DNA of 64,000 nucleotides from the IMG/VR virus record IMGVR_UViG_3300030032_000362. One strand, given 5' to 3'. The notes beneath the pieces were generated by a model that made no database searches, had not been told where the DNA came from, and worked only from the letters and a program-made list of their open reading frames with translations. Both the position numbers and the translations under genes were made by a program. Position 1 is the first letter of the stretch; every line of letters starts with the position of its first letter. The stretch comes from a virus. Its lineage: Duplodnaviria > Heunggongvirae > Uroviricota > Caudoviricetes. Below are positions 2,630 through 55,358 of this stretch, one piece after another.

Positions 2630-3007
2630 TTAATTTTCATACCAGAGCTGTTTTGAGGCTTCATCCTCAAAATAAAGTTTACCAGACACTTTATTTGTAA
2701 AATAAGCCTTTACAAAATAATCCGGATACATCTCATTAGACATAGATGAAAATGCACGAATTGAGACATCATATCCTTTTTCAAGTAACAAATCAATTAT
2801 TTCATCACAAGGCTTTTCATCTGTTGTAATATAGCAACTTGTATTTCCGGATGAAATAGATTGGTTTACCTTTTCAATTGCCTTACGAATCTGTTCTGGC
2901 TTCATTGCTTTATATGCCTCTTTCGCTGGCAATAAGTCCATAGCAAGAAGTTCCTCCTGCTTAACTTCAATTATTTCTGTTCTTTTTGCTCTTTTAAATA
3001 ATTTCAT
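2630..3007 (-). CDS. Hypothetical protein (125 aa)
   Basis: Complete ORF; GGAGGACAC RBS upstream. Confidence 0.45.
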   Translation of the reverse strand: MKLFKRAKRTEIIEVKQEELLAMDLLPAKEAYKAMKPEQIRKAIEKVNQSISSGNTSCYITTDEKPCDEIIDLLLEKGYDVSIRAFSSMSNEMYPDYFVKAYFTNKVSGKLYFEDEASKQLWYEN

Positions 3008-3029
3008 AATTGTGTCCTCCTAAAAATTT

Positions 3030-3344
3030 TTACATGTTTCCAACCATATAATTACGGCTGGAATATTTTCTTTTCACTTTCTTTACCACTTCCGGACGCT
3101 CTGCCTGAGCTTTTGATAAAATTGGCATTGAAAGTTTGTTTTTCCTTTCTTCGCGAAGATTATAAGCTTCTACCACCTTCTGGTGATAGAGATTACCCGG
3201 AATCTCCTGTTCAAAAGAAATTGTAGCTTCCTTTTCGCCAATTTCAACGGAATAACAAATTGGTTCTCCGTCAAAACGGCTGCGATTCAACACCTCGCAG
3301 AGATACGGAATCATTTTTTTCTTTGTTTTGAATTTTTTTCTCAT
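3030..3344 (-). CDS. Hypothetical small protein, paralog of 9659..9895
   Basis: Both share the N-terminal pattern K-IPYL-VL-R---DG--I. AAGGAGGG RBS. Core promoter motif 34 bp upstream. Confidence 0.45.
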   Translation of the reverse strand: MRKKFKTKKKMIPYLCEVLNRSRFDGEPICYSVEIGEKEATISFEQEIPGNLYHQKVVEAYNLREERKNKLSMPILSKAQAERPEVVKKVKRKYSSRNYMVGNM

Positions 3345-3377
3345 TTTGTGCCCTCCTTATTGTTATAAATGATATTA

Positions 3378-3390
3378 TTAATATGTCTGC
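3378..3390 (-). promoter_or_regulatory. Conserved promoter motif copy (TTAATATGTCTGC)
   Basis: Lies upstream of the 3030..3344 operon, immediately after the VirB4 terminator. Confidence 0.6.
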
Positions 3391-9658: not shown

Positions 9659-9895
9659 TTATTTTTCAAAAATAACATCTTTCTTTTGTCTTTCTAACGC
9701 TTTCTTATATAAGCGATACGTAAAATTACCGACCATTTTCTGGTCATAAGTTACGATGGCAATTCCATCTTGTAAAGTAATTTTACAGTTTATAGATTTG
9801 CCATCATAGGTAGCTCTTTCCAATACCTTTGTCAAATACGGTACGAGAGTGCGCTTGTAATAAAAAGTCTTTCCATTATTTGTCTTTTTTTTCAT
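9659..9895 (-). CDS. Hypothetical small protein, paralog of 3030..3344
   Basis: Shares the N-terminal pattern with 3030..3344. Confidence 0.45.
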   Translation of the reverse strand: MKKKTNNGKTFYYKRTLVPYLTKVLERATYDGKSINCKITLQDGIAIVTYDQKMVGNFTYRLYKKALERQKKDVIFEK

Positions 9896-9898
9896 ACA

Positions 9899-10786
9899 CT
9901 ATTCTCCTTTTTCTTTTTTTAGAGTTTCAATGATTTCTTCAATTGTACTATATTTTTTCTTTGCGTGCATACGACTATACATTTTTTTTACATCAACACC
10001 ATAAGCATCGGCAATGGACTTAATTGTTGGATATTCTTTGTCATCCACAATATAATAATACGGTCTTTTTCCTAACATTCTTAAAACCACATCATCTAGA
10101 GATTTTTCCGGGTCTTTTATCAAATTTTCTTTTAACGTTGCCTCGGATAAATCATATTCTGCACATAACGCAGTTAAATTCTTCCATTTCTTACCTAAGC
10201 AATAAAAAGAAAAATCATATCTGGACTTTACCAGAGCAAACACGGCCTCTTCAATTGTCATGCCAGAATGCTTTACTCTGTATTGCAATGTTTGGCGAGA
10301 AATATTAAACACTTTAGATACCTCACCTAAACCATAATATTTTTTGCCTTGAATGGAATAAATTTCGGTTTTGTCCTTTTGGCGCACCGGAGTATTAATA
10401 ATTCTCTCAACGCTCCATTTACGGGTCAGCCTTTTTGTTACAAGGCTTTTTGAAAGCCCGGTCATTTTCACGATTTCCTCAATTGTAATAAATTTTCCTT
10501 TATAAGTTAAATCATATTTAAGAAAACTTTTTACAACTCCAGTAATTACTTTTTCTGATTTGCGCTTCTTTGTGTTAACCGCTTCTACCAACTGTTCATA
10601 ATTGATATTAAAATGGTCGGCCACTTCACGAAGCGTATTATAGCCTTTTCTAAAAGCTATCCATTTGTAAAAACTTAATGGCTGCTCATCCAAAGAAATT
10701 GGTGTTACTTTTGAATTTTTGTTCTGTCCCATCTGTTCAACATTGCATTGTTTATTAGACAATACAAATGGCCTTCCATCAGACAA
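9899..10786 (-). CDS. DNA-binding protein made of tandem helix-turn-helix-like repeats
   Basis: At least three roughly 45-aa repeats (e.g. ...GLSKSLVTKRLTRKWSVERII... and ...ISRQTLQYRVKHSGMTIEEAV...). They are homologous to 13766..14233. The annotated start is TTG; the true start may be the internal Met. Confidence 0.45.
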   Translation of the reverse strand: MSDGRPFVLSNKQCNVEQMGQNKNSKVTPISLDEQPLSFYKWIAFRKGYNTLREVADHFNINYEQLVEAVNTKKRKSEKVITGVVKSFLKYDLTYKGKFITIEEIVKMTGLSKSLVTKRLTRKWSVERIINTPVRQKDKTEIYSIQGKKYYGLGEVSKVFNISRQTLQYRVKHSGMTIEEAVFALVKSRYDFSFYCLGKKWKNLTALCAEYDLSEATLKENLIKDPEKSLDDVVLRMLGKRPYYYIVDDKEYPTIKSIADAYGVDVKKMYSRMHAKKKYSTIEEIIETLKKEKGE

Positions 10787-10875
10787 CTATAAAAACTACC
10801 TGTCTTTACAGTAAAATGTCTTTAGAAGACCTTTCTCCTTATTTTTATTTATTGCATAAAGCAAATTGTTATTAT

Positions 10876-10890
10876 TAATATGTCTGCTTA
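10876..10890 (-). promoter_or_regulatory. Conserved promoter motif copy (TTAATATGTCTGCTT)
   Basis: Upstream of 9899..10786 and adjacent to a hairpin terminator at about 10900-10935. Confidence 0.55.
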
Positions 10891-11305
10891 ACTATGATGA
10901 TAAAAAAAGAAGCCCTAATTTCTTAGGACTTCTTTGCTTTTTATAAATATGTATGATTTTATGGTTGAATCCCATCAGCTAAAGCTAATGGGATTTCTGA
11001 CTAATTATTTAAAGGAGAAAAAGAACTTAATGTTCTTGCTGTTGAAAACGATATTCAACCAAGTCTCCTCTGCAATTGGAAGAAAGAAAAGGGCAAGCAT
11101 TTCCGCAACACATCATCAGTGTGTCCATTTTTCGCTTTGCCCTTAATACCTTTTTCTGTGCCTTTCTCATTCACTCCGCAAAGTGCGAGCTTTCATCTTT
11201 TATAACTTCCCCAAATTTGAGGTTGCTATGGCTGTCCGCAAACACCGAAGGGCATTCTCATATCAGATAAATTTTTATAAAATTTATTAGGAAATATTGA
11301 TAATA

Positions 11306-11752
11306 TCATTTTGAAGCCTCCAATCTGCCAATCTGCCTATTGATTTTGAAATCCATTCTTCTCTCAACCACATCTTCGACTTGAAAAAGTAATTCCATCT
11401 GGCGGCACATGATTTTTACATCTGCCAATTCATCAATAATGTCCTCTCTTGCTTTATTTAAATTGATGATTTCAGATGTAGAATTTACATTTTCGCCTTT
11501 AGCAAGAGCAGATTTTCTCCTGTATTTAAGCAATGCTTTTGTCAGTTCTGACATCTCCTCGATGCACATATCGACCTGAGCCGGAGCCCCATATTCACAA
11601 ATACATCTTTTAAGTACATCATCTCTTTTGTTCGCATTATCCAATCTTTCTGCTGCTTCTTCTAATATTTCTACCGTTCCTTCAACTTCTCTTCCGAACG
11701 GTGGCGTTTTGTATGTATCAGCATATGCTCTAAGTTTTTCTGATATATTCAT
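11306..11752 (-). CDS. MazG-like nucleotide pyrophosphohydrolase (all-alpha NTP-PPase fold)
   Basis: EILEEAAERLDN and IIDELADVKIM resemble the paired EExxE/D metal-binding helices of MazG/HisE-type NTP-PPases. Confidence 0.45.
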   Translation of the reverse strand: MNISEKLRAYADTYKTPPFGREVEGTVEILEEAAERLDNANKRDDVLKRCICEYGAPAQVDMCIEEMSELTKALLKYRRKSALAKGENVNSTSEIINLNKAREDIIDELADVKIMCRQMELLFQVEDVVERRMDFKINRQIGRLEASK

Positions 11753-17036: not shown

Positions 17037-20000
17037 TCATTTCTTCACTTTCATTGTTTTCACAAATCCGGTCTTTTTCTTCTGAATCAGCTTTTTGTAC
17101 TTCTTCAACTGTTTCTTTGGCACCTTGAATGTAGCTTTCTTATAAATTCCTTTGAAAGCATTCTTTCCGATGCTCTTCAGCTTTGCTGCCTTAATAGTTA
17201 CTTTCTTCAGCTTCTTGCAGCCTTTGAAAGCATTTTTCGCAATCGAAGTTACGGTATACGTCTTTTTGCCAATCTTTACTTTATTCAAGATGGTAACGCT
17301 TTTCACTTTCTTCGATGTGCATTTCTTGACAACCGCATACTTTCCGGAAATAGCATATACCACTTTTCCTTTCGTTGCAGAAGTTACGGTTACTGCTTTT
17401 GGCTGCGCAGGTATAGGTTTTACGTTTGGCTGCGTAGGCATAGGCTTTACGTTTGGCTGCGGAACTGTTGGCTCTACATAATCATCATCAGACAACACCG
17501 GAACAGGATAGTCTGTTTCAATTTTATGATGTTCGTCTGTGACCGATTTTGCGCCCTTTAAAAAGTAATCATATCGAATCGGTTCTGTGTCATCCCATGT
17601 TGCATCTAGCAAATACCATTTTCCGTCAACCTGAATCTCATTCCACATATGGTCTACGCTGGACACGTTAATGCAAGGAATTTCATAATAATCGCATAAA
17701 ACTTTTATCATTTTTGCGTAAGATACGCAACATCCTTCTCCGTGTGTCATCATATAACCAATAGAACGAGTTTCATCCGTGCATACAGCGCCTAAAATAT
17801 TGGTTGAATTTCGATAACTATATGTGTTTACTACATAATCATGAATTAATTGTACTTTCCCTTTGATTGATGCTTGCTGAATTCCGGATTTGTCTAATGA
17901 TGAAATAATTCCATTAAAAAATCCTTTATATTCAAGAGCGTCTGCCTTAAAAGCAGTTTCATTATAAGCAGCTAAAGGCAAAACACCACTGGCATATCTT
18001 CCATCTACTTCTTTTACTCCGGAACCGTAAAAATAGAAAATCCAAAATATGGATGGATTATCCAAATATACGGCATAACTTGCATGCATCACATTTTTAT
18101 TTGTGATTTTATCAGTAGCGTAAAACATAATTTTTTTCATTTTACACTCGCCTTTATCCATGTCAAATTTATAATAATTATAAATTGTCGTATAGATTTT
18201 CTTCTCAACATCTGTGAGCTGGTTGTAATACCATTGATTGCTTTCCATCGGCTTTTCAGCATAAGGAATTTCTGTTTCAGTCCCATCAAGAGCCATTATT
18301 TGATTCGTTGGTCGTATCGTGTTGTTTGGATTCCACAAAGCCTTTAAATGGTAATCTGTAGCATTTTGAGGATTAATAATATCAACATAACCGTTTAGCT
18401 CCTCGCAGTACCATCCGGCAAAGGAATAGCCCTCTTTTGTCATGTATCTTGGTAAATCAATCGGGTCATCCTTATACTTATACTCTTTCGGGATTTCTGT
18501 TCCCTTCGGAAGAGTACCTCCATTTAAGTCAACAGAAATACGATAGGTTGTTCCTTCATATACCGCTTCCAAGGTCAAAGGACCGGAGGTATCTGCATCA
18601 ATTTTAGTAATAATCTTGTTGTTCAAGGTATTACGCCATCCGCAGACATAAAATCCCTTTCTCTTTACATTGGTCGGCAGGTCAAATTCATCACCGTAGG
18701 AGTAAGTTTTCGGGTATTCTCCAACAAACTCACCGCCAAGAGTATCATAAGTGATGCCGTAAATGCGGTTTGCTGCTTCCACATAGACTTTTAAGTTGTT
18801 CTTCAATGCATAATTGGACGGGAAAGGAATGGTTACGGTCGAATTCTTGTCTTCACAAGTTCCGGCACTTACCTCTGTTCCGTCTGCTGTTTCTACACGG
18901 TAGCTCTGAATATAACGGTTTGTATTGCACTTCATAATCAATGAATTGATTTTTTCGCCATACTCATACGTTACTTCGTTTGTTTTGTCCAGCTCACGGT
19001 CGCCAAGAAAAGCGGTTGTGTCACTGTACTTTGTACTGAATGTTACCGATGGCTTTTTATACCATGCGGCATAAAGCGTGGTGTCTTTTGCAATATCCCA
19101 CTTATTCTTTCCGGAACTGTAGTTGATTACAGCCGTTTCACGTTCCGTTACCGGAATCGTTTTTGTCCGGTCTGTTACCCATCCGGCAAAGTCATAAAAT
19201 TTGGAATACAGATATGGGAAGTCTTCCCATGCATCATAAGTAAACTCGTACTCTGTTTTCGACTGTGAATTCGTCACAAACGTTACTTTGTACGTGTTTG
19301 GTTTCCAAATAGCATATACAATTACAGTATCTACCTTTCCACTCAAATCGTCTACTACATCTCCATCTTTTGCATACGACCATCCGGTAAAGGAATAGCC
19401 GGTCTTCTCAAAACGGCATGTTGGATTGGCTTTTGTGTCATAGGTTACATCCAAGTCATCCATACTGCCGGAAGTGGCACCGTTCCCATCGAATACTACT
19501 TTGTGGGTTCTTGCCGTCCAATGTGCATAGAGCGTGTGGTTTTCCGCGCGGGTCATCTGTGTATCTTCCGTTACTTTTGTTCCACCTTTTTTTGCCGTGT
19601 ACCATCCGTCAAAGGTGTAACCGTATCGGGATGCCGTTGTTAAGGAATAATCCTTATCGAACGTGTTTGGCAATTCAGCGTCTTTCACTTCTCCTCCGTT
19701 AGCATCAAAAGATACTGTATAGGTGATTGGTTCCAGAATTGCCTTGAAAATAGAGTTGCAATCTACCGTCATGGTAGTTTCCGGTTCTAATTTCTCCGGC
19801 TCTCCTACTGCTTCTCCGTCTGCATTCATTGAATACTTTTCCCAACGAATCAGCTTATACCCTACGCTCGGATAAAAGTTTTCCGGCAGATTTGGTGAAA
19901 AAACTTCCTGATAGGAATGTTCTTCGTTCTGCACGTTGGTATTCTGATTGTTTCGGAAAGAAATCTGATAGACTTCCGGTGTCCATTTGGCATAGACATC

Positions 20001-20975
20001 TGTTCCATCCGGAACTTTCAATAAAACGCCGTCTTTGTCGAAAATCTGAGTGTTTTTCTCAAAATATCCTTCAAATACATAGTGGTCTTTCTTTGGTGGG
20101 TAGATGTTGCCGAAACTACGGCTTTTCTCATCCTCTTTACCCTCAAACACATATACCGAGTCATATTTCAGACCACTGCCCCCGCGGTTTACTTCACCGC
20201 CATCCGGAGCATCTGCATGAAGCGTAACTTCTTTTGCGGCCGCACCAATGTAAGGGAACTTGTCCGGGTCTTTTAAGATGGCCGGGATATTGGTTTTGTA
20301 CTTCGTTTTGTAAACAGTTTTTAATGTGTTTTCCGGAGTAGTTACTGGTCCGCGGAATACGAAACCGCTAGACGTATTATCTGTTCCGTCCAATGTAATA
20401 TTTGGAGAGTTGCAATAGACAAGATTTTGGTTAAAGCAGTTTTGTCCAATTTTTTCTAAAGAATCTGGCAAATAAATAGTTACATCTCCTCTATATCCTT
20501 CATCCTTGCTTCCATAACCATCCTGACTAAACGCCCAATCATTAACCGTTTTCAGCCCCGTACAAGCCGTGGCGTCAACGACAATGCCTGAACTGGTGAC
20601 GTTGAAGGAGCCGAGAAAAAACGAATCCTTGTTTTTCGCGTCTGCATCTCCTAATGATTCCACCTTGTGATAGGCGATGATTTTTCCATCTTCATTACAT
20701 TCCGGTACTTTATCCGGAATAATGATGTCTTTGGTGATTTTTTTTGAGAATTTTCCGTCCTGATATACTCCAATTATATGAACATTACGAGCTGCGCTGC
20801 TTTCATCGCCCGATACTGCATCATATTCCCAGATAATATCTCCCTGTTCTGTCCCTGCGTACCCACTCACCGCATTCTGTTTTCCCTCTTTAATATAACA
20901 AGAACCGACTAACAGGCCGGCAACAAACAATGTGCAGATAGCAAAGGATATAATATTTCTTTTTCTTGCTTTCAT
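17037..20975 (-). CDS. Giant secreted surface protein (1312 aa) with Listeria-Bacteroides repeats, a transglutaminase-like domain, a Pro-rich linker and a Lys-rich LRR-like C-terminal tail
   Basis: Signal peptide MKARKRNIISFAICTLFVAGLLVGSCY. Several GY-F-GW...LYA-W repeats. Cys-His-Asp core THGEGCCVSYAKMIKVLCDYYEIPCINVSSVDHMWNEIQVDGKWYLLDAT. Linker PTVPQPNVKPMPTQPNVKPIPAQP. The last roughly 110 aa are about 65% identical to the tail of the 1896-aa protein. Confidence 0.75.
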   Translation of the reverse strand: MKARKRNIISFAICTLFVAGLLVGSCYIKEGKQNAVSGYAGTEQGDIIWEYDAVSGDESSAARNVHIIGVYQDGKFSKKITKDIIIPDKVPECNEDGKIIAYHKVESLGDADAKNKDSFFLGSFNVTSSGIVVDATACTGLKTVNDWAFSQDGYGSKDEGYRGDVTIYLPDSLEKIGQNCFNQNLVYCNSPNITLDGTDNTSSGFVFRGPVTTPENTLKTVYKTKYKTNIPAILKDPDKFPYIGAAAKEVTLHADAPDGGEVNRGGSGLKYDSVYVFEGKEDEKSRSFGNIYPPKKDHYVFEGYFEKNTQIFDKDGVLLKVPDGTDVYAKWTPEVYQISFRNNQNTNVQNEEHSYQEVFSPNLPENFYPSVGYKLIRWEKYSMNADGEAVGEPEKLEPETTMTVDCNSIFKAILEPITYTVSFDANGGEVKDAELPNTFDKDYSLTTASRYGYTFDGWYTAKKGGTKVTEDTQMTRAENHTLYAHWTARTHKVVFDGNGATSGSMDDLDVTYDTKANPTCRFEKTGYSFTGWSYAKDGDVVDDLSGKVDTVIVYAIWKPNTYKVTFVTNSQSKTEYEFTYDAWEDFPYLYSKFYDFAGWVTDRTKTIPVTERETAVINYSSGKNKWDIAKDTTLYAAWYKKPSVTFSTKYSDTTAFLGDRELDKTNEVTYEYGEKINSLIMKCNTNRYIQSYRVETADGTEVSAGTCEDKNSTVTIPFPSNYALKNNLKVYVEAANRIYGITYDTLGGEFVGEYPKTYSYGDEFDLPTNVKRKGFYVCGWRNTLNNKIITKIDADTSGPLTLEAVYEGTTYRISVDLNGGTLPKGTEIPKEYKYKDDPIDLPRYMTKEGYSFAGWYCEELNGYVDIINPQNATDYHLKALWNPNNTIRPTNQIMALDGTETEIPYAEKPMESNQWYYNQLTDVEKKIYTTIYNYYKFDMDKGECKMKKIMFYATDKITNKNVMHASYAVYLDNPSIFWIFYFYGSGVKEVDGRYASGVLPLAAYNETAFKADALEYKGFFNGIISSLDKSGIQQASIKGKVQLIHDYVVNTYSYRNSTNILGAVCTDETRSIGYMMTHGEGCCVSYAKMIKVLCDYYEIPCINVSSVDHMWNEIQVDGKWYLLDATWDDTEPIRYDYFLKGAKSVTDEHHKIETDYPVPVLSDDDYVEPTVPQPNVKPMPTQPNVKPIPAQPKAVTVTSATKGKVVYAISGKYAVVKKCTSKKVKSVTILNKVKIGKKTYTVTSIAKNAFKGCKKLKKVTIKAAKLKSIGKNAFKGIYKKATFKVPKKQLKKYKKLIQKKKTGFVKTMKVKK

Positions 20976-30780: not shown

Positions 30781-33069
30781 TTACAGCATAATGTCCCACA
30801 AATTTGCATCCTGTTCCTGCATAGCAATTTTAAGTTTCTCTGATTTTTCTTTTTCTTCTTTTGCTATCTTCTTTTCAGTTTCCGTTTTCGCAACCTTTTC
30901 GTTTTCATGTTCCAATTCCAAACATTCTTTTAATTGCTCCGGATTTCCATTACAGACCTTGTTCAAAATTGACTCAGTTTCATAACTAGGCCCATTAATT
31001 ACTTTTTTCTCATCTCGCGCAATTTCTTTCTTGTAGCGAGCAACCTTATCATCATGTGATTGTTTTTTGTCTATCTTAGAATCAATTACACGTTGACTAT
31101 TATATGGAATTTCATAACGAAGTGCTTTATCAGCGTCCCCAGTTAAATGATATTTTGGATGTTCTGTGTAATTGTATTTTGTTGTATAAAAAGGTTTTTC
31201 TCCTCGAATAAATACAATACAATCATTATCCGCCATTTCACGAATCTGGTTAAAATCTAACAAATCCGTTCCAGTATAATTATAAGACTCGTTTCCTCCG
31301 CCTTTTCCACCAATAGAAGTTCCCTGCTGACGTTTCGTTGTTTTACCAAGCATAGCCTGAATATATTCAATCATGTCTTTTTCCTGACTGCCAAGGAAAA
31401 TCATAGTATCGCAGTTTCCAATAATAGTACTCATATCATCATCCCACATTTTTTTCAACTGACTTTGATTCTGCAAGATAATGGTACACCACATTTTATA
31501 AGAACGCATCGTTGCAATTTTTTCAACAAATCCGGGAATTTTACCAACATTCGCAAATTCGTCCAATAGAAAACGTATATTATATGGTAACGTTCGGTCG
31601 CCGGGAACAATTTTTCCTCCGGCATTGGCTAAAAACCATTCTGCTGCTTTCTTATTAAGGAAGCGTTCAATAAAAATATCTTCTTTACTGACAATTTCAT
31701 AATGATTTTCTTTTTCGACAATCTTTGCGCTCTGAAGCATTTTCTTCTTTGCTTTTACTTCTTCAATCGTTTCACCCCATAAGAAAGTTTCCGTCAATCC
31801 ATTTACTTCCTTTTGTAAAAAATAACTATGAGGATATATATTTTCTACTAAATAATACAAATATTCAAACAACTGCGTATACAAACAAGCAGCAATAAAG
31901 TTAAATGCCTTATCCGCAGTAGGAATAATAATAAACAAAACCTGTTTTTTTCTTCCCAATTCTTCTAAATGCAATTCATCTCTTTTTAATAAACTAGCTA
32001 CATTGCTATAATCAAATGCGCTCAATCGAGTCATTGTTGTAATCAACACAGATTTCAATGTCTTACCGGATGCAATACGAAATTCCTTATAACATTTCGT
32101 TGCCATACTTTCCGGGTTACCGGCTTCTTTATTTGCTTTTTCGTAATTATCAAACAATATATCCAATTCGGATTTCGCAGAGGAATTATTTTCATCCACC
32201 TCTGCCAAACGAATCAATTTCATCGCTGTCGATAAATTACACTCTTCTTTTGGCAGCTTTTCCATCATGTAAAAAGAAATTGCCTGTAATAATACCGTCA
32301 TGGAATCATCCCATATCTGGTCTCCTCCGGAAGTGCCTTCTTTTCGTGTATTTTCTACAATACAATTTACCATAGAGCGAACACCATTTTCATCTCGAAT
32401 ATAAGCATACGGGTTATAGCATAGAGAATCTGACATTTTACTAAGGTTAAAAATTTTAATTTCATAACCGGCATCTTCCAATGGTCCAGCTAAAGCTTCC
32501 GTTAATTCTCCTTTTGGGTCAGTAAATACATAGGAGCTATTCATCTGCAACCCATTTGGCTTAACAAGCGAAAATGATTTGCCAGTACCGGACCCTCCGA
32601 AAACAATCTGATGGCAGTTTCTTCGTGTTTTACTACCATTCATGGACATATACAAATCTTTTGCCAAAATTATATTATCTGCTCCATTTGTTTTAATCGA
32701 ACGAAATGGCGTATTATACTTTTTGTTATATGCCTTCATATCCGTATTCCACTTAGCAGAACCTCCGGCATCCTTATCTGTATCTCTTCTTATTACCATT
32801 AAATACGCATATAACATTATAATACCAAAGATACAAGTCCCAACCATTGGATAAACAAATGAATATGACGTAAATGGCAAAATAGCAAGCGGCTTTTCCT
32901 GTATGTGTTCCATTGCTAATTGCATAATCTTTATCGGATTGTTTTCATACTCCGGTTTGATACAACCCATATGTAAGGTGAATAATAAAAGCAATAAATA
33001 AAGGATTCCTCCGCAAAATATAAACATTTTCCGGATTCCGCGTAATCTTTCTTCCTTATTATTAGGCAT
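30781..33069 (-). CDS. virD4: Type IV coupling protein, VirD4/TraG family
   Basis: 762 aa. N-terminal TM helices. Walker A VFGGSGTGKSF and TDPKGE motif as in TraG/VirD4 T4CPs. Confidence 0.85.
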   Translation of the reverse strand: MPNNKEERLRGIRKMFIFCGGILYLLLLLFTLHMGCIKPEYENNPIKIMQLAMEHIQEKPLAILPFTSYSFVYPMVGTCIFGIIMLYAYLMVIRRDTDKDAGGSAKWNTDMKAYNKKYNTPFRSIKTNGADNIILAKDLYMSMNGSKTRRNCHQIVFGGSGTGKSFSLVKPNGLQMNSSYVFTDPKGELTEALAGPLEDAGYEIKIFNLSKMSDSLCYNPYAYIRDENGVRSMVNCIVENTRKEGTSGGDQIWDDSMTVLLQAISFYMMEKLPKEECNLSTAMKLIRLAEVDENNSSAKSELDILFDNYEKANKEAGNPESMATKCYKEFRIASGKTLKSVLITTMTRLSAFDYSNVASLLKRDELHLEELGRKKQVLFIIIPTADKAFNFIAACLYTQLFEYLYYLVENIYPHSYFLQKEVNGLTETFLWGETIEEVKAKKKMLQSAKIVEKENHYEIVSKEDIFIERFLNKKAAEWFLANAGGKIVPGDRTLPYNIRFLLDEFANVGKIPGFVEKIATMRSYKMWCTIILQNQSQLKKMWDDDMSTIIGNCDTMIFLGSQEKDMIEYIQAMLGKTTKRQQGTSIGGKGGGNESYNYTGTDLLDFNQIREMADNDCIVFIRGEKPFYTTKYNYTEHPKYHLTGDADKALRYEIPYNSQRVIDSKIDKKQSHDDKVARYKKEIARDEKKVINGPSYETESILNKVCNGNPEQLKECLELEHENEKVAKTETEKKIAKEEKEKSEKLKIAMQEQDANLWDIML

Positions 33070-37949: not shown

Positions 37950-38025
37950 GGGCGTTGGCCGGACTCGAACCGGCACCTCTTAATGTATTTCACTAAGCGA
38001 GCTACCAATCGCTCTCCACCGCCAC
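37950..38025 (-). tRNA. tRNA-like element; anticodon arm is aberrant
   Basis: Good D-arm (GAGC-GATTGGTA-GCTC) and T-arm (GCCGG-TTCGAGT-CCGGC). The acceptor has one mismatch and there is an extra nucleotide before the anticodon stem. The loop is GAAATAC (A33). Confidence 0.3.
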
Positions 38026-41229: not shown

Positions 41230-41325
41230 TTTTGCCCGAAGCGTTTGCGGTTATCACTCCGGACTTTGGGGGATTTTCTATAAATTCGATACATACGAAA
41301 AAGGTTTTCCGCAAACTTTAAGAAA

Positions 41326-41399
41326 TGGGGAGCGTGGGACTCGAACCCACGACCAACTGTGTATAAGACAGACACTCTAACCAACTGAGTTAGCTCCCT
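41326..41399 (-). tRNA. tRNA-Ile-like with UAU anticodon (reads AUA)
   Basis: D-arm ACTC-AGTTGGTTA-GAGT. Anticodon stem CTGT/ACAG with loop CTTATAC. T-arm GTGGG-TTCGAGT-CCCAC. The acceptor has 6 bp plus one A-C mismatch. Confidence 0.5.
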
Positions 41400-41498
41400 A
41401 TTTTATTGGCTGTGTTCTCCAAAAATGTGTTCTCCGCTATGTGCCCTCCTTTAATGTGTTCTCCATGTAAGAATGTTTTTTTAATCATCCTTACACTA

Positions 41499-42716: not shown

Positions 42717-43096
42717 ATTTAGCAAAAATCACTTTCATCCATACCATAATACTGTTGCGCATCAATATAATATTGGTCATCATGTAATGGAGTTCTCTTA
42801 GCTCTTTCAAAATACTTGCCAATATCTAACCAACATTGATGTTTCGTAAGAGGTTGAATATCCATGTCTAAGTGATTGTTGATGAATAATATTGTCTTTT
42901 CCTGTTTTTTCGTTGGTTTATATTTCTCAGGAATCTTCCATTCATCATCTAAATATGTAATTTTACAGGACTTACAAACAAATTTTTTATGTTCAACTTT
43001 CTGATAATAAGTCTATTCATCTTCCCAATGATAAAACCCTTCCATTTTGCAATAGGTTTTATTATCCATTTCTTTATTGCAATTAGGGCACTTCAT
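42717..43096 (-). pseudogene. Zinc-ribbon protein gene interrupted by a single in-frame TAG (nonsense pseudogene or stop-codon readthrough)
   Basis: AGGAGG RBS, then ATG at 43094-43096. The translation MKCPNCNKEMDNKTYCKMEGFYHWEDE reaches TAG at 43013-43015. The same frame stays open for another 98 codons (TYYQKVEHKKFVCKSCKITYLDDEW... to TAA 42717). The two CxxC pairs lie on opposite sides of the TAG. Confidence 0.5.
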
Positions 43097-43262
43097 ATTC
43101 TCGCCTCCTAAAAAATCAATACCTTTCTCACTATCGTTTGTAAAACATTAATATCTGTAATCTGCTTTACCATTTTAAGCTGTACGCTCATATCATCTTC
43201 CTTTTTAATTTCTTTTATCAATCTATCTGCTTGTTTATTTATTTCTATTGTTTTTGTAAAAC

Positions 43263-48019: not shown

Positions 48020-48561
48020 GAATTACAATAAATTTTGAACTGCACCAACAAGATTAAAATATTCCATACCGTATAATCTAGCAACATTTCCGCCATCATA
48101 GCGGGATTCCTGTTCTTCCTTGTCGGAACACGGGATATCAATGCCCTTTTCGTCCAATAATTCCTCAAACAACTCTACAATTTCTGTTGCATGAGCATTT
48201 TTTGTGCTTCAACATCATCACAATTTTTAACTCCCGGAAAATTGAGAGCCTCGTCAGGCAATTGAGGCAATGGCATCCAAAATAATACTTCTTTTGTTAC
48301 ATCAGCTTCTGCTTTTGAGTCAACGTATTTTCCTAAACACCATATTTTTTCTGGTTCGATAAATCGTGCTTTCCTTGTGTAAATTTCATCAAACTTAGGT
48401 AAATATTCTCCCTTTGACTTGCGGTGTTCGATGATTAGATAATAACCACTTTCTGATGGAGATTTTAATGCCGCCGGAATCCATGTCCGAGCAGCATTAT
48501 AACCATCATGAAAACCATTCTCATAGGTTGATTTCATAAAAAGTCCTCCTTTTAGCAGCAA
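48020..48561 (-). pseudogene. DUF551-like protein gene split by a frameshift at an A-run near 48170-48180
   Basis: The 128-aa ORF (48175..48561) ends ...VLFWMPLPQLPDEALNF...MLMQQKL*. A shift of 1 nt at GCACAAAAAATGC opens a clean extension (...ATEIVELFEELLDEKGIDIPCSDKEEQESRYDGGNVARLYGMEYFNLVGAVQNLL*) that runs to about 48020. Confidence 0.45.
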
Positions 48562-55046: not shown

Positions 55047-55358
55047 CTATTCCGGCAGCAGTTGGATAATGCATCCATACTCACCTGCTCGATACACGTT
55101 AATTTTTTCTGCGTAATATTTTTTACACAATCCATCATCATCATAAACCTCCATCCATTTACAAAATTCAGTTATTTTCTTATAATGATTTGGAATCTCA
55201 ACTTCCGGGTCGTCTACAATGTACGCACTGTAACAACCATCTTCGCCAAAGTTAAGAATCTGTGCACGAAGTCCTTCTTTTGGTTTTGGTCCTATAAGCG
55301 CTAAAGCGGCTACATCTGACGAACCAATATCTTCTTTTCGGTCTTTGTAAAATTTCAT
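55047..55358 (-). CDS. Hypothetical protein (103 aa)
   Basis: Complete ORF with RBS AGGAGG. Confidence 0.4.
   Translation of the reverse strand: MKFYKDRKEDIGSSDVAALALIGPKPKEGLRAQILNFGEDGCYSAYIVDDPEVEIPNHYKKITEFCKWMEVYDDDGLCKKYYAEKINVYRAGEYGCIIQLLPE

Follow-up and report, generated by a model that had tools for sequence, protein, structure and literature searches.

The window analyzed here is a stretch of 64,000 nucleotides from an IMG/VR virus record (IMGVR_UViG_3300030032_000362), and the zinc-ribbon gene on which we focused lies on its minus strand, reading from 43096 down to 42719, with an internal TAG at codon 28. The intact form of this gene encodes a protein of 125 amino acids. Related loci are designated below by L numbers and protein products by P numbers. 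The parts of the locus are as follows.

42719 to 43096, minus strand: whole zinc-ribbon gene, 126 codons counting the internal TAG and the terminal TAA
43104 to 43109, minus strand: Shine–Dalgarno sequence AGGAGG, with a 7-nt spacer to the ATG, read directly from the sequence
43096 to 43094, minus strand: ATG start codon of the zinc-ribbon gene
43013 to 43096, minus strand: truncated frame of 27 codons plus TAG, holding the first CxxC knuckle only
43079 to 43090, minus strand: first zinc knuckle, CPNC, codons 3 to 6; C3 and C6 are invariant (alignments A1 and A2)
43013 to 43015, minus strand: in-frame TAG, codon 28, whose first base is 43015
42965 to 42976, minus strand: second zinc knuckle, CKSC, codons 41 to 44, located 3′ of the TAG; C41 and C44 are invariant
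42722 to 43012, minus strand: 97 open codons after the TAG, matching the intact alleles
42719 to 42721, minus strand: TAA terminator of the zinc-ribbon gene, which is TAT in the TAG carrier L001

The 27 sense codons ahead of the TAG encode MKCPNCNKEMDNKTYCKMEGFYHWEDE, and the 97 codons behind it, which start TYYQKVEHKKFVCKSCKITYLDDEW and end DESDFC, cover the remaining zinc ribbon and the helical C-terminal domain (residues 63–124 of the structural model described below). A preliminary description of this DNA had reported a strong ribosome-binding site and an ATG followed by 27 codons and a TAG, with CPNC before the stop and CKSC after it, and the AGGAGG, its spacer, and the positions of the two knuckles bear this out. 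The same description left the strand unstated and set the low coordinate at 42717, which is 2 nt too far; its count of 98 further codons is right only if the TAA is included, the sense codons numbering 97. No ATG, GTG, or TTG occurs within 49 codons 3′ of the TAG; the first is an ATG at 42865, and no Shine–Dalgarno sequence lies ahead of it.

We searched the merged product, with the TAG position masked, against 5.8 billion clustered proteins and obtained 65 homologues (best E = 8.6e-75), most of which are exactly 125 amino acids long. This arrangement is therefore not a chance pattern of ORFs, and the merged frame is a real gene. Residues C3, C6, C41, and C44 are invariant in alignments of 45 to 49 sequences, and the close relatives have Glu at position 28 (consensus HWEDEE). 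An AlphaFold2 prediction that used the alignment and took the intact orthologue P0001 as its target reached a pLDDT of 90.8 and consists of a beta zinc ribbon at approximately residues 1–55 followed by four helices at 63–124; the beta strands of the model fall at residues 15–54, with pLDDT above 90. Alignment and model together indicate a zinc ribbon predicted to carry two CxxC knuckles, with four conserved Cys, on a beta-hairpin scaffold. Judged against the model, the stop at codon 28 spares one knuckle and one strand, and the truncated product is without two of the four invariant cysteines (C41 and C44) and without the entire helical domain. The protein found no family match in Pfam, PHROG, NCBIfam, or PADLOC; the Pfam zinc-ribbon models score below threshold on it, which places it outside every curated family, and a structural search with the model returned no significant neighbor. 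A distant homologue (37% identity) is present on a 125-kb contig (L032, JAZQNA010000029.1) binned as Candidatus Absconditabacterales, an alternative-genetic-code lineage, and could be either a mis-binned mobile element or a true occurrence.

The identical TAG is found in more than 20 independent gut-metagenome assemblies (from ENA and Logan), including contigs of 143 to 215 kb, and its carriers stem from different samples, studies, and assemblers. We located carriers through the downstream 48-aa ORF, which the index of the assembly collection lists in 57 blocks, fetched L002–L007 and added L001; all six fetched loci and L001 carry the TAG, and L040–L047 are eight further carriers. Over the gene, L002–L007 and L040–L047 show 0 nt differences from the window and L001 shows 2. 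One of them, L002 (ERZ918343 k127_114927, human gut, 143,839 bp), is 100% identical to the window across 6.1 kb, and the remaining TAG carriers are 99.6 to 99.9% identical, with flanks at 99.6 to 100%. A concern about read support at 43013–43015 is answered by this replication, which establishes the TAG as a real allele and excludes sequencing error. On these identities, the TAG carriers are a near-clonal, widespread lineage, and for that reason their conserved downstream codons carry no information.

Whether orthologues keep the TAG or have a sense codon in its place had been posed as a check on the preliminary description, and the answer is a sense codon for Glu, GAG or GAA. GAG occupies codon 28 in L008–L024 (L009–L024 being the close relatives fetched from IMG/VR) and in L048–L052, the latter differing from the window gene by 1 to 2 nt; GAA is found in L025/L026 and in L031, the cultured isolate Clostridium sp. 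AF37-5 (WP_118443401.1), which has 6 nt differences in the gene. In L038, L039, and about 8 similar contigs, codon 28 is CAG (Gln), and this is the sole difference from the window gene. Exact look-ups of the residues one substitution away from TAG found E28 and Q28, with K, Y, W, L, and S absent. Read from these relatives, the ancestral codon 28 is known to be GAG (Glu), from which TAG would arise by one transversion (G-to-T). As GAG, TAG, and CAG all occur on one gene background, nucleotide 43015 is tri-allelic (G, T, C). Among the contigs read, those with this gene haplotype comprise about 38 with TAG, about 10 with CAG, and 7 with GAG, so that TAG is the commonest form.

Some database records of this locus depend on the gene caller. 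On L040–L047, which are short contigs, the TAG was read as Gln (code 15), giving a 125-aa "Q28" protein (P0067), and the 52-aa gene upstream, itself terminated by TAG, was called there as 57 aa; the identifier P0067 also spans contigs with a genuine CAG (L038 and L039). The TAG of the upstream 52-aa gene (43110..43108, minus strand) overlaps the zinc-ribbon Shine–Dalgarno sequence (T-AGGAGG). At its position L031 has GAG and L048 has GGG, which lengthens the upstream protein by 5 codons and makes it overlap with the zinc-ribbon start.

The region is a mosaic: in the GAG carriers, the two genes upstream differ from the window by 3 to 11%, and the zinc-ribbon gene differs at 1 to 2 sites. Recombination breakpoints lie near 43109 and 42716, which are the borders of the zinc-ribbon gene (L047, L048, and L049), and their position suggests shuffling of gene-sized modules in this accessory region. 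The TAG is found on three downstream haplotypes (window-type, L043-type, and L047-type), meaning that it has persisted through recombination, with no further decay except in one carrier. CAG is found on the L043-type haplotype and, within ~1.1 kb, differs from L043 only at 43015 and 43376. We tried to order the alleles by parsimony on the local haplotypes, and because of recombination the paths GAG to TAG to CAG and GAG to CAG to TAG are inseparable. Two mutations have struck the single nucleotide 43015, and the other 377 positions have changed at most once each. We infer that selection is an easier explanation of this double hit than chance, acting perhaps through reversion of a null allele or through escape variants at or through residue 28. 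As a source of the variation, a diversity-generating retroelement or hypermutation seems unlikely, as there is a single variable site and the ancestral base is G, not A.

The gene has also been disrupted elsewhere in the family. In L025/L026, a lineage with 64% protein identity, a TAG interrupts the gene (3001–3378 of these loci) at codon 104 (3310–3312), where relatives have TTA (Leu), and the truncated 103-aa product (P0032) occurs on 7 contigs. Two loci from independent samples, L034 (217–600) and L036 (185–568), have a 1-nt deletion in common (−1 frameshift), L037 (1501–1880) has a 1-nt insertion in an A-run (+1 frameshift), and several more database members of the zinc-ribbon family are truncated or frameshifted. 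We asked whether it counts as evidence of suppression that both nonsense events produced TAG; some 30% of random nonsense mutations in this gene would give TAG, so the chance probability for two of two is about 0.09, and we regard the coincidence as uninformative. A suppressor cannot rescue frameshifts, so the simplest common explanation of all these disruptions is dispensability. L001, alone among the TAG carriers, has decayed further, having lost both the last conserved Cys (C125F) and the TAA.

Aside from the stop, the changes unique to the lineage are 2 nonsynonymous and 1 synonymous, too few to give dN/dS any power. An apparent signal of relaxed selection, 5 nonsynonymous changes to 1 synonymous, was discarded: it included M113A and E115Q, and the intact L031 shares A113 and Q115. 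Two TAG carriers have split neighbors, a 170-aa gene called as 47 + 101 aa in L003 (1287–1710) and a 99-aa gene called as 47 + 50 aa in L004 (3528–3827), which suggests that genes in this accessory region are frequently disrupted.

The window had been taken as a phage-like setting. This does not fit its gene content, which includes conjugation genes.

30781 to 33069, minus strand: VirD4-like coupling protein of the CD1115 family (Pfam), ~40% identical to Firmicutes conjugative-plasmid proteins
3433 to 5853, minus strand: VirB4-like ATPase (Pfam)
17037 to 20975, minus strand: 1,312-aa surface protein with Listeria-Bacteroides repeats

A UvrD helicase and an SPFH protein are encoded as well. PHROG scans detected no phage structural proteins in the window, the INPHARED phages gave no DNA or protein match, and the PLSDB plasmids gave no match for the zinc-ribbon gene. 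We rejected a classical phage identity on the lack of structural hits and the presence instead of the VirD4-like and VirB4-like conjugation proteins; from its genes, the element is probably a conjugative plasmid or ICE, or a phage–plasmid hybrid. The relatives of the window are catalogued as viral in IMG/VR (UViGs of 105 to 190 kb). The element is roughly 144 kb long, with a GC content of about 35%, and its hosts are human-gut Clostridium/Clostridia; contigs that contain it span 143 to 215 kb, and one copy, with the CAG allele, sits within a 967-kb scaffold (ERZ28615267 scaffold_1). The relatives carry PcfJ, Thg1, Tad4, SSB, YopX, and SPbeta-like genes.

The zinc-ribbon gene itself sits among small same-strand genes and adjoins a tRNA array, with a tRNA-Gln(UUG) 1.7 kb downstream. 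Rfam confirms six of the seven window tRNAs and gives no further tRNA-like matches. ARAGORN called a tRNA-Ile(AAU), and also a tRNA-Ile with an unusual UAU, at 37950–38023 and 41325–41400 (both minus strand); the tRNA-Ile(AAU) is unsupported by Rfam and missing from the L031 array, and the call may be false or the gene degenerate. Between the tRNA-Ser and tRNA-Glu of the array lies a full-length ROOL RNA (RF03087; 39864–40441, minus strand), matching model positions 1–574 of 574 with 368 bits against a gathering score of 99. ROOL is known near tRNAs and in prophages (PMC5737381); compared with the known prophage setting, the one here is in a conjugative element.

We next consider whether TAG is read as a sense codon in this element. 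TAG ends 25 of the 110 greedy ORFs in the window and 18 of its 78 long minus-strand ORFs. When eight TAG terminators were aligned to the ~94%-identical L031, six were TAG there, one was TAA, and one was GAG with a 5-codon extension; none of the eight became CAG. By this comparison, TAG is a normal, conserved terminator in the element. Coding density, taken from a proxy ORF caller and not from Prodigal, was 0.868 under code 11, compared with 0.885 when TAG was read as sense and 0.886 in the control that reads TGA as sense. The gain with TAG as sense (+1.7 points) thus equals that of the TGA control and is far under the published criterion for recoding, a gain in coding density of more than 5 to 10% (Borges et al., bioRxiv 10.1101/2021.08.26.457843), and the extra length comes mainly from fusions of neighbors that have their own Shine–Dalgarno sequence and ATG.

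No other amber-interrupted gene was found in the 64-kb window. Several candidates were inspected and dismissed: at 9659–11306, mixed stops crowd the region upstream of the TAG; the pairs at 55047, 6276, and 9899 come with a Shine–Dalgarno sequence and ATG of their own; and at 48561–47977 (candidate 48175), where there is no Shine–Dalgarno sequence and the TAG is conserved in L031, the true downstream gene is in another frame, at 48023–48172. In this last region (48023–48561, minus strand), TAG closes a 128-aa ORF; the ORF that next looks coding (49 aa, TTG start, "MFEELLDEKGIDIP…") lies in another frame, open already upstream ("…TEIVELFEEL…"), and the arrangement could reflect an overlap, a noncanonical start, or a frameshifted gene. 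Global recoding of TAG was rejected, given that TAG is a frequent terminator, that there is no density gain specific to code 15, and that a single gene is interrupted.

As the preliminary description had noted for the local array, ARAGORN finds no tRNA with a CUA anticodon among the seven window tRNAs. None was detected in 20 kb of the L031 isolate scaffold, in ~9 kb past the high end of the window (two contigs, one of them a TAG carrier) or ~3 kb past its low end, or in the CAG and GAG loci (the flank and locus scans being of L038, L048, L053, L055, and L056), nor was there any Pyl-like tRNA in the scanned DNA. These scans covered ~76 kb of the roughly 144-kb element, the host chromosome lying outside them. 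Over 111 nt around the stop, the RNA folds at −17.2 kcal/mol compared with a shuffle mean of −15.8 (z = −0.5), no more stably than shuffled sequence; an A comes directly after the stop, where we recognized none of the known bacterial readthrough motifs. The stop is not conserved in orthologues, being confined to one near-clonal lineage, with GAG or CAG in the sister alleles. One of the two readings that had been offered for the locus, programmed readthrough or conditional expression, is unsupported by any of this: the stop is unconserved, and RNA structure, suppressor tRNA, and signs of recoding are absent from the scanned DNA.

The other of the two readings, a fresh nonsense pseudogene, is supported, in that the orthologues have Glu, a near-identical GAG allele circulates, and two of the four cysteines are lost. 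We consider it likely that the TAG is a nonsense allele that inactivates a small accessory gene, one carried on a conjugative element of human-gut Clostridia. A single G-to-T change would have converted GAG (Glu28) into TAG in a near-clonal, widespread lineage of the element; ribosomes would start at the strong Shine–Dalgarno sequence and ATG, make a 27-residue, one-knuckle peptide, and terminate; and the 97 codons after the TAG would be intact only because the mutation is recent. Since other lineages have knocked out the gene independently, the gene would be dispensable, or its loss would sometimes be favored. We infer that the full-length protein is not made and that the gene is dispensable. 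The allele is real, its ancestral codon is known, recoding signals are absent in the scanned data, and independent disruptions exist. Two observations run counter to the null reading: the TAG is the majority form, present on three haplotypes and undecayed in all but one carrier, and a CAG allele cocirculates, which is also what decoding of TAG as Gln predicts.

Loss of the gene could have been adaptive if the protein is a liability in some hosts, as when a host defense system senses it; E28*, L104*, the frameshifts, and E28Q would then have escaped this pressure, and reversion would occasionally follow a shift in selection. The four independent disruptions in different lineages and the high frequency of the null allele favor such a scenario, as do the two hits on one nucleotide, against at most one at any of the other 377 positions, which are hard to explain neutrally. 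The breakpoints at the gene borders, the small, shuffled accessory genes around it, and the Tad4 and Thg1 genes nearby in relatives point the same way. However, hitchhiking in a successful clone can give high frequency, parsimony does not separate the possible orders of the three alleles, the split neighbors in L003 and L004 suggest that the region is decaying generally, and neither the family models (Pfam, PHROG, NCBIfam, and PADLOC) nor the structural search points to a function. We therefore regard adaptive loss as unlikely. Two further accounts of the interrupted frame can be given less weight still. Two separate products, the 27-aa N-terminal peptide and a 48-aa ORF restarted at Met78 (42865..42719), would accord with the gene callers, which annotate the 48-aa ORF in many assemblies; this is very improbable, given that there is no Shine–Dalgarno sequence at 42865 and no start in the 49 codons after the TAG, that Met78 falls past the first helix of the modeled helical domain, and that no homologue is naturally built so. 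Sequencing or assembly error at 43015 has next to no probability, being already refuted by the identical TAG in more than 20 independent contigs from several assemblers.

The remaining alternative is that the TAG is decoded fully or in part, most plausibly as Gln, so that expression is conditional or reduced and yields the same Q28 protein as the CAG allele. The Gln would come from a suppressor tRNA encoded at another place in the element or by the host, or from the near-cognate tRNA-Gln(UUG), of which the element has its own copy 1.7 kb downstream. In support, the CAG allele and a TAG allele (L043) are near-identical over ~1.1 kb apart from the stop base, and interchange of TAG and CAG is typical of genomes in which TAG encodes Gln (Borges et al., bioRxiv 10.1101/2021.08.26.457843). 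The TAG allele is also frequent and mostly undecayed, and the second in-frame stop in the family, at codon 104, is again TAG. Suppressor tRNAs are found in only 35 to 40% of recoded phages (Borges et al., bioRxiv 10.1101/2021.08.26.457843), which makes their absence weak evidence. Against these points, the ancestor is GAG and not CAG; TAG is a normal conserved terminator, one TAG stop being swapped for TAA in L031; the +1.7-point density gain is no more than that of the TGA control; and this is the sole interrupted gene in 64 kb. Moreover, there is no CUA tRNA in the ~76 kb scanned and no stimulatory RNA structure, two of two nonsense events being TAG has the chance probability of about 0.09 given above, and the gene is also frameshifted, which is beyond rescue by a suppressor. 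We judge decoding of the TAG to be quite improbable. A specific form of it, in which the stop is a leaky attenuator and Gln inserted at UAG would yield, at a low level or conditionally, the same Q28 protein as the CAG allele makes constitutively, has only a slim chance of being correct; if it were, TAG would be an "off/low" allele, CAG "on, Q28," and GAG "on, E28," with dosage under fluctuating selection. The slight residual probability that we leave to some form of Gln insertion at the TAG reflects the TAG/CAG pair together with the DNA beyond the tRNA scans, about half of the element and the host genome.

On the loss-of-function reading, this locus illustrates cleanly a nonsense polymorphism in a gene that a gut mobile element can do without, and as such it has little weight for genome biology; the tri-allelic site and the repeated inactivation are no more than a modest curiosity. 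Public metagenomes contain all three alleles on near-identical backgrounds, with GAG as the ancestor, TAG as the null, and CAG as a possible pseudo-revertant, and this amounts to a small natural experiment on the loss and regain of an accessory gene. The zinc-ribbon protein itself falls in no curated family and has no significant structural match. There are also two practical consequences for annotation. Alternative-code gene callers create database proteins (P0067 on L040–L047) that are nonexistent under the host code and that mimic the CAG allele, and "viral" entries in IMG/VR can be conjugative elements, so that a prior of the kind "phage with tRNAs, so maybe recoded" needs checking.

Programmed readthrough, as in the Q-beta A1 protein and retroviral gag-pol, involves a conserved stop, a functional short product, and a defined context or RNA structure that promotes readthrough. 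The locus resembles these systems in having an in-frame stop between an upstream segment and a same-frame continuation, but here the stop is lineage-specific, the product is a 27-aa peptide with half a zinc site, and no structure follows. Code 15, in which TAG encodes Gln, is used by gut crAss-like and Lak phages (Borges et al., bioRxiv 10.1101/2021.08.26.457843; Peters et al., PMC9523058), and the element shares with them its human-gut mobile DNA, low GC, tRNAs, an in-frame TAG in a conserved gene, and alternation of TAG and CAG. Unlike in those phages, a single gene in 64 kb is affected, TAG is a frequent, conserved terminator, and there is no density gain specific to code 15; the ancestral residue is Glu, no suppressor tRNA is present in the scanned DNA, and the setting is a conjugative element and not a lytic phage with late genes. 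The likeness to code-15 recoding is superficial, three of its four defining features (coding density, many in-frame TAG codons, and TAG as a nonterminator) having failed. The nearest known counterpart of the locus is an ordinary nonsense polymorphism in a mobile-element accessory gene. As in other ordinary nonsense alleles or young pseudogenes, a one-base change from a conserved sense codon removes invariant residues, there is no restart signal, the frame is otherwise intact, independent disruptions occur, and one carrier has decayed further. The locus differs from them in that the null allele is the majority of its haplotype and occurs on several recombinant backgrounds, and in the third allele, CAG, at the same base, which would be either a pseudo-reversion or part of a two-step path.
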